In this document: positions 10,306-29,050 of the stretch, in pieces | Layout: the number at the start of each line of letters is the position of its first letter | Numbering within the stretch: the first letter of the stretch is position 1 | Source of the DNA: Candidatus Methylomirabilota bacterium | GTDB taxonomy: Bacteria; Methylomirabilota; Methylomirabilia; Rokubacteriales; CSP1-6 | Length of the DNA stretch: 64,000 bases | Assembly: GCA_035764725.1 (NCBI GenBank) | Contig: DASTYT010000044.1 | Location: 1-64,000 of the forward strand | Reading direction: 5' to 3' | Translations under genes and position numbers: made by a program | Notes under the pieces: model-generated | Databases searched by the model: none | Told to the model about the DNA's origin: nothing | What the model saw: only the letters and a program-made list of their open reading frames with translations

Positions 10306-10414
10306 AGCAGGAAGCCCCGGTGCTATGCTCCGTCGAGAGGCAGGGGGAGGTGAGTGGACATGGGGCGCGTGAGACCGCCGCGGAAGCCGAAGAAGAAGAA
10401 GTAGGGACAAGCAT

Positions 10415-11644
10415 GTGATGCGGGTCTGGATCGGAGTGCCGCTGCTCGCGGGTCTCGCGCTACTCGCGGCGCCGGCCCGTCTCGCCGCGCAATCTTCCCC
10501 ATCGGCGGCCGCCCCGCTCGAGGTGCAGACCATCCTCGAGGTGAAGAAGACCACGCCGGGGATGCGGGTGCCCATCACCGTGCGCGTGCTCAATCGCGGC
10601 AGGGCGTCGGTCGGGCCCGTCGAGGTGAAGATCCGGCCGCTTCCCCTCGACCCGGCGGCGCCGGCGCTGGCCCCGCGGCTGCTCCTCCCCGGTCAGTCCC
10701 TCGCGCACGCCTTCACGCTGCTTGCCGAGCACGCCGGCACCTACACGATCAGCGTGTGGATCGTGGACGGCAGCGGCGGGCTGCTGCTCGCGCAAGAGGC
10801 GGGAGCCCTGGAGGTCGCACCCACCACCTGGGTGGGGCCCAGCGCCCCCGCCATCATCGCGGCCATCGTCACCATCGTCGGTACCCTCTTCATCCAGGTG
10901 ATGATCTGGCGGCTGAACCGCCGGCAGCGGACCACGGAGGCGGTGAGCCAGATGGTCGTGGGCATGGCCCGCGACTATTTCGGGACGCTCTCGGGCACGC
11001 TCGTCGAGCTGACGCGGGCGCTCAAGGCCATCCGCGACCCGGCCATCACTCCGGAGGAGCGCGAGCATTTGCATGTGCGTGCGTTCTTCTTCTTCGGGAT
11101 CTTCCTGCACAAGGAGAATCAATTCGCGTTCGACCAGGGCGTGATGTATCTGCCGCATCTCTGGGCGGAGGGCGCGGTCGGGTCCATCGTGGCCGAGGTT
11201 CTGCGCATGGTGGACCTCAGGAAGGAGCAGGAAGCGGTCGTTCACAAGTGCTTCTCGGACATCGCGATCATGCAGCGTGGCCCCGGTGACGCCAAGGGCG
11301 TGGACTTTCAGTTCCGGACGCTCTTCGATTTCGAGCGGATGCTCCGTGCGGAGCGCCCGGACTACGCGCGCGTCGAGCAGCGCCGCGTTCGCGAGGTGTA
11401 CGACGAGGTGAAGGCCAAGTTCGAGGACCCGGAGGTCATCGAACGGATCCGGATGCTCGAAGAGGCCCTTCGCGCCATCATCGAATACGAGTTCACGTCG
11501 ATCTTCGCGGATGTGTATGTGAGCAAGGAACAGGAGCGCGAGCTGCCCCTCGCACCGCCCAAGGGCTTCGACGCCATCGTCGACGGCGTCACGTGGAAAG
11601 AGGTCCGGGAGCGCGTGCTGGGCGCGCGCCCGAACCTCCCCTGA
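10415..11644 (+). CDS. Hypothetical single-pass membrane protein
   Basis: Signal peptide, a ~130 aa beta-rich extracytoplasmic region (TVRVLNRGRASVGPVEVKI), one TM helix (AIIAAIVTIVGTLFIQVMIW), and a ~240 aa cytoplasmic domain with no recognisable family. Confidence 0.6.
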   Translation: MMRVWIGVPLLAGLALLAAPARLAAQSSPSAAAPLEVQTILEVKKTTPGMRVPITVRVLNRGRASVGPVEVKIRPLPLDPAAPALAPRLLLPGQSLAHAFTLLAEHAGTYTISVWIVDGSGGLLLAQEAGALEVAPTTWVGPSAPAIIAAIVTIVGTLFIQVMIWRLNRRQRTTEAVSQMVVGMARDYFGTLSGTLVELTRALKAIRDPAITPEEREHLHVRAFFFFGIFLHKENQFAFDQGVMYLPHLWAEGAVGSIVAEVLRMVDLRKEQEAVVHKCFSDIAIMQRGPGDAKGVDFQFRTLFDFERMLRAERPDYARVEQRRVREVYDEVKAKFEDPEVIERIRMLEEALRAIIEYEFTSIFADVYVSKEQERELPLAPPKGFDAIVDGVTWKEVRERVLGARPNLP

Positions 11645-17524: not shown

Positions 17525-17764
17525 GAGTTCACCCCCTTTCGCAGCGCCGTCCCGGCGCGATGTCGGGGCGATTATAGTCGCTGCCCCGGAAATTGAGGAG
17601 CCTTCCGTGCCCCGCGAGGTGCTCGCGCGATAGCCGCGCGGCTCGCGGGCGCCCTCGCCGCGGCCGTCGCCGGCCTGCCGGTCTCGGCCGCCGCCCACGG
17701 GGTCGGCGATCGCTACGACCTGCCTGCCCCGCTCGCACACTTCATCGCGGGCGCGAGCGCGACG

Positions 17765-19450
17765 GTGGCGCTGTCTTTCGTGCTGACCGTGCTGGTGGCC
17801 CGGGGCGACGTCCCGGCCGGGCGTTCGCGCGCCGTGACGGTGCCCCTCGGCCTGCTCGGCCCGCTGGGCTTCCGGCTTGGCCGGGCGCTCGGGGTGTTCC
17901 TCCTCGGCGTGGTGCTGGTGGCGGGGTTCGCGGGGGATGCCTCGCCGGTGCGGAACATCGTGCCCACGCTCGTCTGGGTGGTCTGGTGGGTGGGGCTCTC
18001 GCTTCTGGTGGCCTTCATCGGAAACGCGTGGCCCGCCTTCGACCCGTGGCGCGCGCTCTTCGATGGCGTGGACGCGGTGGTCCGCCGGGCCCGGGGCGGG
18101 CGAGGCCTCGCACGCGGCCACCCGTATCCTGCAGCCCTCGGCCTCTGGCCCGCGGCTCTCCTGCTGCTCGCCGTCGGATGGTGCGAGCTGGTGGACCTCC
18201 GGGCGCCCGTGCCGCGCCACGTCGCGGCGCTGGCGCTCGGCTGGTCCGCGCTCACGTGGGCGGGCATGCTCTGCTTCGGCCCCGCGGTGTGGCAGGCGCG
18301 CGCCGATGTCTTCGCGGTGTACTTCACCGTGCTCGGCCGCTTCGCGCCGCTCGCCCCCACCGCGGACGGCCGCGCCCTCCGCCTGCGTCCATTGGGACGG
18401 GGACTCGTCGAGGCCGGGGACTCGCCGCCAGGCGGCGCCGCGTTCATCGTCGCGATGCTCGCCGTGGTGCTCTTCGATGGCCTGCTCGGCACGCGGCTCT
18501 GGCGCCTCATGGATGGCGCGGTGGACGCCTGGGCGCCCGGGCTGGATCAGGAGGGGTACGGACTCGCCACCGCCGGGCTCGTCACGGTGTGGCTGCTGCT
18601 GCTGGGCGCCTATCTCGCCGCCTGCCGCGTCACGTCCCGCATCCTGCCTGCGGCGGAGCGGCGGCGCCTGATCGCGCCCGCCTTCGTCTGGGCCCTGGTG
18701 CCGATCGCCGTCGGGTACGCCGTGGCGCACAACCTGGGCTATCTGCTCGTGCGCGGGCAGGATCTCATCCCCCTAATCTCGGATCCCCTCGGCCTCGGCT
18801 GGGATCTCTTCGGCACGGCGGACTGGACGCCCGACTTGCGCCTCGTGAGCCCCGGGTTCGAGTGGTACGTGGCGGTGAGCGCGGTGGTGGCGGGCCATGT
18901 GGTCTCGATCTGGCTCGCCCATCGTCTGATGCTCAACGTGGTGGACCGACCGCAGCGGGCCGCGCTCGCGTCCCTGCCGCTGACCATCCTGATGGTGGGC
19001 TACACCGCGGTCAGCCTCTGGATCATCGCGGAGCCGCTGGTACGGCTACCGGATGCAGATGCCTTGAAACCACATGCCGTTGTAGGCGAGGCAGGCGCAG
19101 GGCGCGCCCGGGTTCGCGCCGACCTCGAGCCGGCAGAGGCCGTAGTCCGTCCGGCACACGCGGGGATGGATGATGCAGGGGTAGTTGAAGGGCACGAGCA
19201 CGAAGAACGGCAGCTCGGGGCACTGCGGCGGCGCGGGCTGCTGCGCGAAGCCGTCACCGACGGTGCACAGCGCAGCCACGAGGACGAGCGCGGCGAGCCA
19301 GCGCATCGGCGCACCTCCGATCAGGGGCGGACGATGAGGTCGATCTCCACCGCGCCGCCGAGCGCGAGCGCCGTGACGCCCACCGTGGTCCGCGCGGGCA
19401 GGCGGCCCGGCGCGAAGTGGCTCGCGTACTCGGCATTGACCCCCGGATAG
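17765..19450 (+). CDS. Hypothetical polytopic membrane protein
   Basis: At least 10 hydrophobic helices. First in-frame start is GTG 17765. An RBS plus GTG at 17607 in another frame, joined to the in-frame upstream stretch, would encode a signal peptide (see findings). The last ~130 codons overlap antisense genes and may not be real. Confidence 0.5.
   Translation: MALSFVLTVLVARGDVPAGRSRAVTVPLGLLGPLGFRLGRALGVFLLGVVLVAGFAGDASPVRNIVPTLVWVVWWVGLSLLVAFIGNAWPAFDPWRALFDGVDAVVRRARGGRGLARGHPYPAALGLWPAALLLLAVGWCELVDLRAPVPRHVAALALGWSALTWAGMLCFGPAVWQARADVFAVYFTVLGRFAPLAPTADGRALRLRPLGRGLVEAGDSPPGGAAFIVAMLAVVLFDGLLGTRLWRLMDGAVDAWAPGLDQEGYGLATAGLVTVWLLLLGAYLAACRVTSRILPAAERRRLIAPAFVWALVPIAVGYAVAHNLGYLLVRGQDLIPLISDPLGLGWDLFGTADWTPDLRLVSPGFEWYVAVSAVVAGHVVSIWLAHRLMLNVVDRPQRAALASLPLTILMVGYTAVSLWIIAEPLVRLPDADALKPHAVVGEAGAGRARVRADLEPAEAVVRPAHAGMDDAGVVEGHEHEERQLGALRRRGLLREAVTDGAQRSHEDERGEPAHRRTSDQGRTMRSISTAPPSASAVTPTVVRAGRRPGAKWLAYSALTPG
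19046..19306 (-). CDS. Small cysteine-rich secreted protein (86 aa)
   Basis: GGAGGTG RBS, ATG at 19306, signal peptide MRWLAALVLVAALCTVGDGFA, and a mature region with 7 Cys. Lies antisense within ORF 17765..19450. Confidence 0.4.
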   Translation of the reverse strand: MRWLAALVLVAALCTVGDGFAQQPAPPQCPELPFFVLVPFNYPCIIHPRVCRTDYGLCRLEVGANPGAPCACLAYNGMWFQGICIR

Positions 19451-25307: not shown

Positions 25308-26363
25308 CTACGCGCGCGCGGGCGGGAGCGCGACGGTGCGCCCGGTCGCGCTCGACTCGAGCGCGGCAGCCAGGATCTCCTGCACGTCGCGGCCCACCTC
25401 GGGCGCGCAGAGCCCGGTGATGGGCCGGCCGTCGCGCAGCCGCGCGAGGAAATACGACACCCCGTCGCGCTCGCCGGCGGGCAGCTCGGGCGGCTCGATC
25501 GTCTCGCTGCCGTCCACCCGCACGATCTGGACGCGGCCCCCGCCGACCTTGTGCCCCTCGTGGGTCGGGCGCGGCTGATGCACGATCAGCGTGCCGGTGT
25601 CGCCGTAGACGATGAAGGCGAAGCCGGGCTCGCCGCCGATCTGCGTCCACGAGCCCTCCAGCGTCGCGAGCGCGTGCGGATAACGCAGGACCACCACCGC
25701 GTTGTCCTCCGAGGGGAGGTCCTTCTTGCGGAGATGCGCGGCCACCGCGGTGACGGACTCGGGCCGGCCGAGCAGCGTGCGGGCGAGGATGCCGCCGTAG
25801 CCGCAGTAGTCCACGAGGGCGCCGCCGCCGTTCCGGGCGGGATCATAGAGCCACGCGCAGAATTGCTCCGAGCAGCCGAATTCACGGGGGCCCCGATGGC
25901 CGCCGCGATGGGCGAGCTGCACGGGCTCGCCAACCGCGCCGCCGCTCACCAGGGCAACCCCGTGGCGCAGAGCCGGTCGCCACGCGGTGGGCCAGTTCAC
26001 CATGAGGGGCCGGCCCGCGACACGGGCCGCGGCCACGAGGGCGTCGGCGCCCGCCAGATCCGCGGCCATGGGCTTCTCGACCATCACGGGGAAGCCGCGG
26101 CCGAGGGCGCGCGCGCCCCACTCCGCGGACGCGCGGTTGTCGGTGAAGCAGAGGATGGTGTCGAGATCGCGGCGCTCGAGCAGCGCCGCGAAGTCGGTCA
26201 GCGCCGCCGCCCCCCCGTGCTCGCGGGCGAGGCGCTCGCGCAACCGCGGGTCGGGCTCGGCCACCGCCGCGAGCACGCCCTGGTCGCCCGCGGCGATCGC
26301 CGCGAGATTGGACCAGACGTGGTCGTGGCTGAGCCCGAGGACGCCGACCCGCAGCCGAGTCAC
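25308..26363 (-). CDS. Gfo/Idh/MocA family oxidoreductase
   Basis: N-terminal Rossmann 'RVGVLGLSHDH' and a GFO_IDH_MocA C-terminal domain. Confidence 0.8.
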   Translation of the reverse strand: MTRLRVGVLGLSHDHVWSNLAAIAAGDQGVLAAVAEPDPRLRERLAREHGGAAALTDFAALLERRDLDTILCFTDNRASAEWGARALGRGFPVMVEKPMAADLAGADALVAAARVAGRPLMVNWPTAWRPALRHGVALVSGGAVGEPVQLAHRGGHRGPREFGCSEQFCAWLYDPARNGGGALVDYCGYGGILARTLLGRPESVTAVAAHLRKKDLPSEDNAVVVLRYPHALATLEGSWTQIGGEPGFAFIVYGDTGTLIVHQPRPTHEGHKVGGGRVQIVRVDGSETIEPPELPAGERDGVSYFLARLRDGRPITGLCAPEVGRDVQEILAAALESSATGRTVALPPARA

Positions 26364-26378: not shown

Positions 26379-26882
26379 CTACAGCGCCTTCAGCATGGTG
26401 TCGGCGTCGCTGACCTCGAACTTGCCGGGCGCCTCCACGTTGAGGGCCTTCACGGTGCCGTCGTCCACCAGCATCGAGTAGCGCTGCGAGCGGACGCCCA
26501 TGCCGCGCGCGGTGAGATCCATGTCGAGCCCGAGGGCCTTGGTAAATACGGCGCTGCCGTCGGCCATCATGCGCACCTTGCCGCCCGCCTTCTGATCCTT
26601 GCACCACGCGCCCATCACGAACGCGTCGTTCACTGCGACGCACCAGATCTCGTCCACCTTCTTGGCCTTGAGCTTGTCGAAGTTGGCCAGGAACCCTGGC
26701 ACATGCTTCTGCGATCACGTGGGGGTGAACGCCCCGGGCAGGCCGAAGATCACGATCTTCTTGCCCTTGACGAGATCCGCCACGCTGAAGTTGTTGGGGC
26801 CGATGGTGCAGCCGGGCTGCTCGGTCTCGATCATCTCGGTGAGCGTGCCGCCGGGCAGCTTGTCGCCGACTTTGATCGCCAT
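26379..26882 (-). CDS. Peroxiredoxin (Prx5-like/type II) with in-frame TGA at the peroxidatic Cys position; candidate selenoprotein
   Basis: GAGGAG RBS plus ATG at 26882. MAIKVGDKLP…FGLPGAFTPT-[TGA at 26715-26717]-SQKHVPGF… continues to the stop at 26379. The TGA replaces the Cys of the conserved FTPTCS motif. A candidate SECIS hairpin follows 14 nt downstream. Confidence 0.65.
26686..26700 (-). other. Candidate bacterial SECIS hairpin
   Basis: On the mRNA, GCCAGG-GUU-CCUGGC (6-bp perfect stem, G/U in the apical loop) begins 14 nt 3' of the UGA. It extends to a possible lower stem AAG…CUU. Confidence 0.45.
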
Positions 26883-26964
26883 GAGTGTCTCCTCGGTGGA
26901 CGGATGGGATTCGCTGATTCCGCGCGGATCGCGCGTCGAGGGGGAATGGTATCACACGCGCCCC

Positions 26965-27005
26965 GGCCGCGGCCTGCCGGCCCCGTCCCTTCCCGGCATG
27001 CCGGG
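26965..27005. promoter_or_regulatory. Two perfect palindromes (GGCCGCGGCC; CCCGGCATGCCGGG) in the divergent prx/shc intergenic region, possible operator
   Basis: Read directly from the sequence. They sit between divergently oriented start codons. Confidence 0.2.
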
Positions 27006-27037
27006 AGCGGGGCACCGATCGTTTACACTGAGTGCCT

Positions 27038-29050
27038 ATGTCGTCCTCCTCGTTCGAGCCCGGCGAGGGCGCGCTCCCGCGCGTCCGGCCCGCGGCGGAG
27101 AGCCGCGAGGCCCTTGCCGAGAAGGCGAGCGTGGTCGCCGACCACGCCGCCGAGGCGGTGCTCGCGCTCCAGAAGCCGGAGGGCTACTGGTGCGGCGATC
27201 TCCTCGGCGACAGCACGCTCGAGTCGGACTACGTGGTGTTGCAGCTATGGCTGCATCCCCCCGACAACGATCCGTGGCGGCCGCCCAGCTGGGACCGCAT
27301 CCTGCGGGCGCGCGAGGCCATCCTCGGCGTGCAGGGAGCGGACGGCGGATTCCCGATCTACCCCGACGGCCCCGGCGAGATCAATGCGACCGTGAAAGCC
27401 TATGCGGCGCTCAAGCTCGCTGGGCTTTCACCCGACGCCGAGCCGATGCGTCTCGCGCGGGCGGCGGTGCTGCGGCTGGGCGGCATCCAGGAAACGAACA
27501 GCTACGTCCGTATCAACCTGAGCTTGTTCGGCCTCTACCCGCGCCGCTACGTGCCCACCATCCCGCCGGAGCTCGTGCTGCTCCCCGGCGGCATCATCTA
27601 CGAGATGTCGTCGTGGACGCGCGCGATCGTGGTACCGCTGTCGATCGTGCAGGCGCGCGCGGGGCGCCGGCCCGTCCCCGCGGGCTTCACGCTCGACGAG
27701 CTGGCGCTGCCCGGCAAGAGCTTCCGCTTCCCGCGGCGGGACCGGCTGTCCGCCGTCTTCACGCAGATCGACGCCGCGCTGAAGGTGTGGGAGCACCGCG
27801 CGCCCGAGGTGATCCGCAGGTCGGCGCTTCGCGAGGCCGAGAAATGGATGCTCGATCGGACGCGGCACAGCGACGGGCTGGGCGCGATCTATCCGGCGAT
27901 GATGTACTTCATCATGGCGCTCGAGTGTCTCGGCTATCCGCGTGATCATCCCGATCTCGTCGAAGCCCTCCGCGTGTACGAGGAGCTGATGACGGACACC
28001 GGGGAGCGGCTCTACTTCCAGCCGTGCTTCTCGCCGGTCTGGGACACCGCCATCGCGATGTTCGCCCTCGGCGAGCAGGGCCACGAGGCCGCGGCGGCGC
28101 AGCGTCGCGCCGCGGACTGGCTCGTCGCCAAGGAGATCCGCCGGCGCGGCGACTGGTCGGTCAAGCGGCCGGAGACGGAGCCGTCGGGGTGGGCATTCGA
28201 GTTCAACAACGAGCACTACCCGGATATCGACGACACCGCGATGGTCCTGCTCGCGCTGCAGCACGCGAAGGCCAGCGATCCGGCGGCGCAGGCGCGCTGC
28301 GAGCGGCGCGCCCTGATCTGGCTCACGCAGATGCAGTCGAGCGACGGCGGGTGGGCCGCGTTCGACGTGGACAACAACTGGGCCCTGCTCAACCGCGTGC
28401 CGTTCGCCGACCACAACGCGATGCTCGATCCCACCTGCCCGGACATCACCGGGCGCGTGCTGGAGGCGCTCTGCCGCCGCGGGCTGAGCATCACCGATCA
28501 GCCGGTCGATCGCGGCGCCGCGTATCTGCTCCAGACGCAGGAGGAGAACGGCTCCTGGTACGGGCGCTGGGGCGTGAACTACGTCTACGGTACCTTCCTC
28601 GCGCTGCGGGGGCTGCGTGCCGCCCACGATCGGACTGCCTCGCGCGCCATGTTCCAGGCCGGCCGCTGGCTCGCGTCGGTGCAGAACGCCGACGGCGGCT
28701 GGGGCGAGAGCTGCGCGAGCTACGGCGACGGACAGTTCGTGCCCGCGCCGAGCACGCCGTCGCAGACCGCGTGGGGACTGCTGGGGCTCATCGCGGCCGG
28801 GCAGGGCGACGGCGACGCCCTGATGCGCGGCGTGCGCTACCTCATCGACACGCAGAAAGCCGACGGCACGTGGGACGAGTGGCTCGCCACCGGGACGGGC
28901 TTTCCCGGCGTGTTCTATCTCCGTTACACGCTCTACCGGAACTACTTTCCGCTGCTGGCACTGGCGCAGGCGCGGCGGGTGCTGGAGGCGAGCGCGCGGA
29001 GCCTGCGGCTCGTCCGTGAGGGCGGGATCGGCGCCCGCGACGCCGACTGA
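27038..29050 (+). CDS. shc: Squalene-hopene cyclase
   Basis: DxDD motif 'DIDDTAMVLLAL' and multiple QW repeats (QxxxGGW). ~670 aa. ATG at 27038, alternative GTG 27032. Confidence 0.85.
   Translation: MSSSSFEPGEGALPRVRPAAESREALAEKASVVADHAAEAVLALQKPEGYWCGDLLGDSTLESDYVVLQLWLHPPDNDPWRPPSWDRILRAREAILGVQGADGGFPIYPDGPGEINATVKAYAALKLAGLSPDAEPMRLARAAVLRLGGIQETNSYVRINLSLFGLYPRRYVPTIPPELVLLPGGIIYEMSSWTRAIVVPLSIVQARAGRRPVPAGFTLDELALPGKSFRFPRRDRLSAVFTQIDAALKVWEHRAPEVIRRSALREAEKWMLDRTRHSDGLGAIYPAMMYFIMALECLGYPRDHPDLVEALRVYEELMTDTGERLYFQPCFSPVWDTAIAMFALGEQGHEAAAAQRRAADWLVAKEIRRRGDWSVKRPETEPSGWAFEFNNEHYPDIDDTAMVLLALQHAKASDPAAQARCERRALIWLTQMQSSDGGWAAFDVDNNWALLNRVPFADHNAMLDPTCPDITGRVLEALCRRGLSITDQPVDRGAAYLLQTQEENGSWYGRWGVNYVYGTFLALRGLRAAHDRTASRAMFQAGRWLASVQNADGGWGESCASYGDGQFVPAPSTPSQTAWGLLGLIAAGQGDGDALMRGVRYLIDTQKADGTWDEWLATGTGFPGVFYLRYTLYRNYFPLLALAQARRVLEASARSLRLVREGGIGARDAD

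Follow-up and report, generated by a model that had tools for sequence, protein, structure and literature searches.

Does an in-frame TGA that interrupts a bacterial peroxiredoxin gene end its translation, or does it encode selenocysteine (Sec)? The question is raised by a 64,000-nt stretch of DNA, referred to here as the window (positions 1 to 64,000, forward strand, of contig DASTYT010000044.1 in assembly GCA_035764725.1, Candidatus Methylomirabilota bacterium). Its minus strand carries prx, a gene for a peroxiredoxin of the Prx5 (Redoxin) type, in which TGA takes the place of the codon for the peroxidatic Cys and is followed by a hairpin that resembles a selenocysteine insertion sequence (SECIS; bSECIS for the bacterial kind). 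We consider it probable, at roughly 0.82, that prx encodes a Sec-containing Prx5-type peroxiredoxin, with Sec inserted at residue 56 by the canonical SelB/SECIS route. This reading, put forward in an earlier note on the same DNA, is supported by the conservation of the TGA, by selection and by a hairpin that is tied to the TGA. The argument concerns the following elements, of which the start and stop codons were read from the sequence.

26379..26882, minus strand: Prx5-type (Redoxin) peroxiredoxin gene, prx; 167 residues if the TGA is decoded, with a predicted Sec at residue 56 in the motif PGAFTPT-U
26889..26894, minus strand: Shine-Dalgarno-like GAGGAG, 6 nt 5' of the ATG, conserved in the relatives L001 and L010
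26882-26880, minus strand: start codon ATG
26715..26717, minus strand: in-frame TGA in the peroxidatic-Cys column, predicted Sec codon
26679..26709, minus strand: SECIS-like stem-loop, nt 9-39 counted from the U of the UGA
26685-26702, minus strand: conserved 18-mer core GTGCCAGGGTTCCTGGCC, within the predicted SECIS hairpin
26379-26381, minus strand: prx stop codon TAG

The minus strand reads MAIKVGDKLP...GLPGAFTPT, TGA and then SQKHVPGFLANFDKL..., with 111 open codons up to the TAG; around the TGA the translation is ...GLPGAFTPT*SQKHVPGF.... With the TGA bridged, residues 4-164 match positions 1-148 of the Pfam Redoxin profile PF08534 (128.2 bits, cutoff 26.6, E=2.8e-37). The closest solved structure, 4f82, is of the same length and aligns over residues 3-165 (E=8e-69), and the other structure matches, poplar 1tp9, Vibrio 5k2i and human PRDX5, are likewise of the Prx5 type. 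PGAFTPT[TGA]S lines up with PGAFTPTCS in 4f82 and 1tp9, so that the TGA falls in the column of the peroxidatic Cys, and it stands in for the Cys of FTPTCS relative to all close homologues and solved structures. The catalytic Arg is kept (RSQRY, aligned with RSLRY and RSRRF), and a resolving Cys at the C-terminus, such as human PRDX5 has, is absent from the window protein. At the level of sequence, these alignments establish both the Prx5 family assignment and the position of the TGA. They bear out what the earlier note had claimed for the gene, namely a GAGGAG ribosome-binding site (here 26894-26889) with an ATG at 26882, a Prx5-like product, and a TGA at the peroxidatic Cys followed by 111 open codons.

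Throughout the 64-kb window, prx is the only place where two coding-like segments (G+C content at third codon positions, GC3, above 0.85) are joined in the same frame through a single TGA. TGA is also the commonest stop codon in the window, where it ends 20 of the 39 long open reading frames (ORFs); the genetic code is therefore not reassigned, and a genome-wide reassignment of TGA is ruled out. None of the NCBIfam selenoprotein-specific models matches the window protein. The PrxU model NF040737 (cutoff 270 bits) gives no match to it at E<=0.001, and scores 21.1 bits on a relative from the Reyranellaceae.

The TGA recurs far beyond this contig. A scan of one genome per species for the pattern F-T-P-x-TGA-x-x-K-H-[VL]-P-G returned 44 matches, 43 of which are intact Prx5 genes with TGA at the peroxidatic column; the 111 codons past the TGA are open in all of these that are not disrupted or ended by a contig edge. 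The carriers span metagenome-assembled genomes (MAGs) of Methylomirabilota and members of the Reyranellaceae. Six of the 43 species are represented by Methylomirabilota/Rokuibacteriota MAGs, and cultured carriers are Enhydrobacter aerosaccus ATCC 27094, Vineibacter terrae CC-CFT640 and Reyranella sp. CPCC 100927, with Rhodospirillales bacterium URHD0017 and SYSU D60007 as further isolates. The 55-aa and 107-aa products into which the gene is split belong to protein clusters of 12 and 35 members from JGI, ENA, NCBI and Logan assemblies, and one cluster member occurs on 50 contigs. Ten contigs (L001-L010) carry a squalene-hopene cyclase gene (shc), a divergent split prx and a gene for a GFO/IDH/MocA oxidoreductase, all with the TGA and at 92-99.6% nucleotide identity to the window. 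Between the window gene and close TGA-bearing relatives, the ratio of nonsynonymous to synonymous substitution rates (dN/dS, with dS for the synonymous rate) amounts to 0.04-0.14 for the part upstream of the TGA and to 0.10-0.17 for the part downstream, a range indistinguishable from that obtained against Cys-form genes. The low ratios on both flanks argue that both halves are maintained as protein.

A few single loci are irregular. At L039:3245, in a Methylomirabilota MAG, the 111 downstream codons are intact and conserved; the upstream frame is disrupted, encodes an unrelated peptide and has a dN/dS of about 1, and this N-terminal part is a frameshift or an assembly error. L071 has two tandem copies of the TGA-containing gene, with matches 557 nt apart, both with the TGA and the 18-mer. 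From L051:4463 onward the frame continues into an adjacent second prx gene, possibly through a frameshift or as a tandem paralogue.

The mRNA downstream of the UGA can form GCCAGG-GUU-CCUGGC (26700-26686), starting 14 nt past the TGA. In the predicted fold, from the base upward, a lower stem GAAG/CUUC (G9-G12/C36-C39) is followed by the pairs U15-A34 and G16-C33, a bulged U17 and an upper stem G18-G23/C27-C32, which is closed by the apical loop G24-U25-U26 (GUU, alternatively GGUUC). The 40 nt from the UGA adopt one dominant fold of -14.2 kcal/mol, which makes up 79% of the ensemble (z=-2.3 relative to shuffled sequences); folding of a 71-nt stretch gives z=+0.73, which is uninformative, and of the two lengths the 40-nt element is the one that matters. 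In the published bSECIS model, the apical loop has 3-9 nt and the upper stem 4-16 bp, G occurs within the first two positions of the loop, UGA and loop lie 16-37 nt apart, and the minimum free energy is at most -7.5 kcal/mol (PMC13188914). The window hairpin falls within this model on all four constraints: its loop is GUU above 6 bp of stem (or GGUUC above 5 bp) and starts with G, its spacing is 19-20 nt, and its energy is that given above. Both the hairpin and its placement at the distance expected of a bacterial SECIS had been described in the earlier note, and both hold, the geometry being that of the fdhF element. The 18-mer of the hairpin is unique in the window (0.01 occurrences expected). 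Searches against Rfam gave nothing relevant over the whole window at gathering thresholds, nor around the site at permissive E-values.

The decisive evidence for the predicted selenoprotein is comparative: the 18-mer goes with the TGA, its CCA codon is invariant, and the Cys forms are without the hairpin. Across 31 distinct genes from two phyla, the synonymous sites of AAG CAT GTG CCA GGK TTY CTG GCC AA are conserved, with CAT in 29 of the 31 genes and GTG, CCA, CTG and GCC in every one. Codons +1..+11 have a normalised synonymous entropy of 0.27, and the remainder of the gene on either side has 0.50. For comparison, CCA makes up 2.9% of the Pro codons used in the window, CAT 22% of the His codons and GGG 20% of the Gly codons. 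When metagenomes were scanned with the peptide fixed at P-T-[C/U]-x-x-K-H-V-P-G-F-L-A, the 18-mer GTGCCAGGKTTYCTGGCC was present in 58/58 distinct TGA genes, compared with 2/18 distinct TGY genes; conservation of the hairpin in homologues, on which the earlier note had made its proposal depend, is thus found. Recent reversion from Sec to Cys would seem to account for the few Cys genes in which the 18-mer persists. Of the Cys-form genes, the three nearest, with an overall nucleotide identity of 86-90%, read GTG CCK GGY TAC ACG/GTG at this position and have no hairpin there.

Other Sec forms use other hairpins. Methylomirabilota L026, L032, L035 and L037 have GUGCC-C[GGGUWC]G-U-GGCAC instead, and a Rhodospirillaceae group has CUGC...GCAG, in each case with a G-G/U-U loop at the same distance from the UGA. 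The loop G is conserved among the Sec forms, as it is in known bSECIS elements. In the proposed pairing register 90% of the alignment cells pair, compared with 7-58% when the 3' arm is slid.

Several observations weigh against this interpretation. The bSECIS constraints, in our own implementation, are also passed by 276 of the 1,276 TGA trinucleotides in the window (21.6%), and perfect hairpins with 6 bp and a 3-nt loop occur 52 times per 64 kb, so that the hairpin alone would not justify a claim of Sec. By itself it is weak evidence for a SECIS, and this background pass rate led us to reject the generic bSECIS criteria as a test in their own right. To some extent the hairpin is an automatic consequence of GC-rich codons for V-P-G-F-L-A. 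The association between 18-mer and TGA has a Fisher's p of about 1e-14, which is overstated, since related sequences were treated as independent. Compensatory changes are few, two pairs and three cells, too few to prove the structure; with covariation this scarce, the structural case rests on conservation and on the association with the TGA. A 726-nt soil contig (L011:183-686) has the same prx with the TGA, but its sequence past the TGA, SAKHVPGYVTNH, is of the Cys type, and the SECIS position has no hairpin. In L011, a simple nonsense mutation of TGC to TGA or faulty assembly is the probable cause, and the contig shows that a TGA can arise at this codon without a SECIS. Finally, ARAGORN found no tRNA-Sec in the window or in any related locus, tblastn with E. 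coli SelA, SelB and SelD gave no match in 875 kb of related loci, and Pfam annotation of 30 window ORFs revealed no Sel protein family. In favour of the interpretation, the use of Sec is on record for the phylum: a Methylomirabilota MAG with 63 predicted selenoprotein genes has been reported (PMC13188914), and Methylomirabilota are among the phyla with Sec-containing [NiFeSe] hydrogenases (PMC13582414).

Other explanations of the TGA have to be weighed against the same data. That it is a nonsense change from TGC in an ordinary Cys-peroxiredoxin, in a pseudogene or through a sequencing error, would take one substitution, as appears to have happened in L011, and would fit the NCBI and ENA annotations, which give two separate short ORFs. 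Yet the TGA is present in the genomes of 43 species and in at least 58 distinct metagenomic genes from independent projects, the 111 downstream codons have no further stops or frameshifts and a dN/dS of 0.10-0.17, and a conserved RNA element specific to the TGA forms is in place. For the window gene we regard this explanation, hardly credible on these grounds, as effectively refuted. The earlier note had reached the same conclusion from the clean downstream frame and the hairpin; the conclusion stands on the comparative data, whereas that argument alone is weak, given the share of TGA trinucleotides that pass the bSECIS constraints. Very improbable, too, is true termination at the UGA, with the downstream part either unexpressed or made separately from GTG 26702, where gene callers start the 107-aa ORF. 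This GTG is the Val codon of the KHVPG motif, which is universally conserved, also in the Cys forms, and no Shine-Dalgarno sequence precedes it. Moreover, the 55-aa piece would end just short of the catalytic residue and the 107-aa piece would be without it, leaving no complete active site, although selection is equal on both halves.

Two further explanations accept that the UGA is read through. Downstream RNA structures can stimulate read-through in general, and a near-cognate tRNA for Trp, Cys or Arg might decode the UGA independently of a SECIS, with the hairpin as a generic stimulator; the low specificity of the generic bSECIS constraints in this genome would agree with this. However, an enzyme with Trp or Arg at the peroxidatic position would be inactive, which does not fit the purifying selection on the gene. 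The hairpin also shares its geometry with the fdhF element that SelB binds, the bulged U being at nt 17 and the G/U loop equally far from the UGA, and its loop G is conserved as in known bSECIS elements, so that we give near-cognate read-through very little credence. Somewhat less remote, though still distinctly unlikely, is decoding of the UGA as Cys by a non-canonical tRNA (tRNA-ReC/SelC*), which depends on SelB and a SECIS (PMC13582414) and would yield an ordinary Cys-peroxiredoxin. The TGA, the SECIS and the selection data are equally compatible with such a tRNA. What speaks against it is that the system is reported as a minority one, that no such tRNA was found in the window or in the related loci searched, and that TGY-encoded Cys forms abound in the same lineages, so that Cys insertion by this roundabout route would bring no obvious benefit.

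Under the preferred reading, insertion of Sec, the hairpin at nt 9-39 downstream would serve as a bacterial SECIS when the ribosome nears the UGA at 26715-26717. It would bind SelB-GTP with Sec-tRNA(Sec), and Sec would be brought to the A site against the competition of release factor 2. Translation would then proceed through the remaining 111 codons to give a 167-residue enzyme, in which Sec56 would lie in a P-x-x-x-T-x-x-U active site and the Arg of RSQRY would complete the peroxidatic pocket. Because a C-terminal resolving Cys of the PRDX5 type is missing, the selenenic acid would probably be recycled by an external reductant, glutathione/glutaredoxin or thioredoxin, by analogy with other bacterial and plant Prx5-type enzymes. 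We infer the insertion of selenium, its dependence on SelB, the reductant and the presence of selA, selB, selC and selD in the source genome.

The Sec forms appear to be related to Cys forms separately in each phylum. The window protein is 84-92% identical to Cys forms from Methylomirabilota and only about 60% identical to the alphaproteobacterial Sec forms; for the latter, identity to Cys relatives of their own reaches 86%. Yet the 18-mer is the same in both Sec groups, and the Sec forms of each phylum are nested among its own Cys forms. Sec forms and their nearest Cys forms differ precisely in the residues encoded by the 3' arm of the hairpin, where F-L-A-N replaces Y-V/T-x-N in Methylomirabilota and F-V-A-E in Reyranellaceae. 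As judged from these alignments, the shared 18-mer would indicate that the RNA structure forced convergence or, alternatively, that a short patch was transferred. Tentatively, and with the odds somewhat against it, we speculate that the genes form an uncatalogued Sec-Prx5 subfamily in aerobic soil and freshwater bacteria, which would have come to use the same 18-nt SECIS in two phyla either by convergence, with the RNA structure dictating the peptide, or by transfer of a SECIS patch between phyla.

Two Cys-type sequences have an unusual composition. The closest Cys-form gene (L056:432-935, protein P0002) is mosaic-looking, with a dS relative to the window of 0.09 for codons 69-167 and 0.69 for codons 1-55, and shares the clade-specific Cys94 (GAWCKDQ); it is either a recombinant between alleles of the Sec and the Cys type or the product of a chimeric 1.2-kb assembly. 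The top match in the protein search, P0001 (266 aa, from a 1-kb ENA contig), consists of two fused Prx5-like segments, each with FTPTCS; probably two tandem genes were joined here by a frameshift or through faulty assembly.

Public annotations treat the gene as two. In the NCBI MAGs GCA_046723635.1 and GCA_046765735.1 and in ENA entries, it is given as proteins of 55 and 107 aa, the second starting from the Val codon of KHVPG. The protein collection holds only such fragments (P0142 and P0129 from NCBI, P0133-P0147 and P0121-P0126), and there is no full-length Sec entry among the top matches. This splitting is a systematic mis-annotation of a probable selenoprotein. The 90%-identity cluster of the 55-aa fragment (P0122, P0127, P0128 and P0130-P0132) also contains sequences of ribosomal protein L15. 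The two kinds are bridged by P0127, a 255-aa chimera of an L15 N-terminus, a Prx segment and an unrelated C-terminus, and the mixed cluster is a clustering artefact from a chimeric contig.

The genes and the intergenic region next to prx are as follows.

25308..26363, minus strand: GFO/IDH/MocA-family oxidoreductase gene (Pfam PF01408/PF02894 on the orthologues in L001-L007), starting 15 nt past the prx stop
26883..27031, strand not assigned: intergenic region shared by shc and prx, with the conserved block GCGCGTGTGATACCATTCCCCCTCGACGCGCGATCCGCGCGG, the inverted repeat 26921-26935 and the 14-nt palindrome 26992-27005
27032..29050, plus strand: squalene-hopene cyclase gene shc (PF13249/PF13243 on orthologues), divergent from prx, with a predicted start

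The oxidoreductase gene is probably co-transcribed with prx. The divergent arrangement of prx and shc agrees with the earlier note, which had also placed two perfect palindromes between them; one of these, CCCGGCATGCCGGG at 26992-27005, is a perfect 14-nt palindrome, and the other, at 26921-26935, turns out to be a 6-bp inverted repeat with a 3-nt spacer and not a strict palindrome. Perfect 14-nt palindromes occur 17 times in the 64 kb, and the intergenic ones are hence unremarkable in themselves. Neither a sigma-70-type promoter nor an intrinsic terminator was detected in this region. The block GCGCGTGTGATACCATTCCCCCTCGRCGCGCGATCCGCGCGG, which includes the inverted repeat 26921-26935, is conserved in four relatives. 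At the position of the palindrome, L008 (1110-1325) has a different perfect inverted repeat, TCACCG-AACG-CGGTGA, and differing inverted repeats at one site hint at a conserved hairpin or operator.

The window as a whole has a G+C content of 70.5%. It is collinear with L001/L002 over 20 kb at 89.6% identity, and with two MAGs labelled Candidatus Methylomirabilota over 7-8 kb at about 80% identity. From this we conclude that the DNA belongs to a Methylomirabilota (Rokubacteria) genome of soil origin. L023 (DATJFY010000131.1), which carries the label 'Verrucomicrobiia bacterium', matches the window collinearly along 8 kb (88.7% identity), much as the contigs labelled Methylomirabilota do, and is probably mis-binned or mislabelled. 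Two long ORFs of high GC3 on the plus strand, at 10373-11644 and 17597-19450 (423 and 617 codons from stop to stop), have no Pfam match at E<=1e-5; the latter corresponds to a 589-aa gene, likewise without a Pfam match, that is conserved in L001/L002.

If prx is a selenoprotein gene, its split entries should be merged and flagged accordingly, and the use of Sec in peroxiredoxins would extend to the Prx5 subfamily and to aerobic soil lineages. Cultured carriers with natural Cys paralogues would make it possible to test directly both the insertion of Sec and the catalytic benefit of Sec over Cys. The locus would also be a tidy case of an RNA element that constrains codon choice and amino-acid sequence. 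Recoding of this kind is already familiar, and the understanding of Sec decoding is unchanged by it.

PrxU of Eubacterium acidaminophilum is said to have been verified experimentally as a Sec-peroxiredoxin, by Sohling in 2001. The window protein is predicted to resemble PrxU-type enzymes in being a thioredoxin-fold peroxidase with Sec for the peroxidatic Cys in PxxxTxxU, in having its SECIS hairpin within the coding region just past the UGA, and in having widespread Cys homologues. That Cys-to-Sec conversion occurs in Prx-like proteins, as the earlier note had stated, is documented for bacteria, where Sec-peroxiredoxins of the TxxU family are abundant in metagenomes and have arisen by recurrent conversions (PMC1088965, PMC1794560, PMC13188914). 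We found no description in the literature of a bacterial Sec-Prx5, nor of Sec in Reyranella or Rokubacteria; the Prx selenoprotein family of the surveys, which covers any T/SxxU/C peroxiredoxin, may already include such genes. Unlike PrxU, the window protein belongs to the Prx5/Redoxin subfamily, whereas the literature describes Sec-Prx through COG1225/PF00578. The carriers differ as well, in that earlier surveys laid the stress mainly on anaerobes, and the genes described here come from soil and freshwater Methylomirabilota and from Reyranellaceae.

Among structurally characterized proteins, the window protein resembles 4f82 (Burkholderia), 1tp9, 5k2i and PRDX5 as a Prx5-type enzyme, with the active-site motif and the Arg as in 4f82, and differs from these Cys-peroxiredoxins in having TGA in place of the Cys codon. 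The closest parallel for the RNA element is the verified E. coli fdhF SECIS, a 42-mer that is 100% identical within fdhF across 5,419 E. coli genomes. In the fdhF hairpin, the bulged U and the G-U of the loop are the determinants for SelB. When it is folded in the same way, the bulged U falls at nt 17/18, and the loop, GGUC, spans nt 22-25. According to the predicted folds, the window hairpin is like it in lying immediately 3' of the UGA within the ORF, in a single bulged U on the 5' side of the upper stem, in an apical loop that opens with G and has G/U at nt 22-24, and in a lower helix that closes at about nt 39-40. It is unlike the fdhF element in that its upper stem is 1-2 bp longer and its loop is GUU or GGUUC, not GGUC, and the two sequences are otherwise unrelated.

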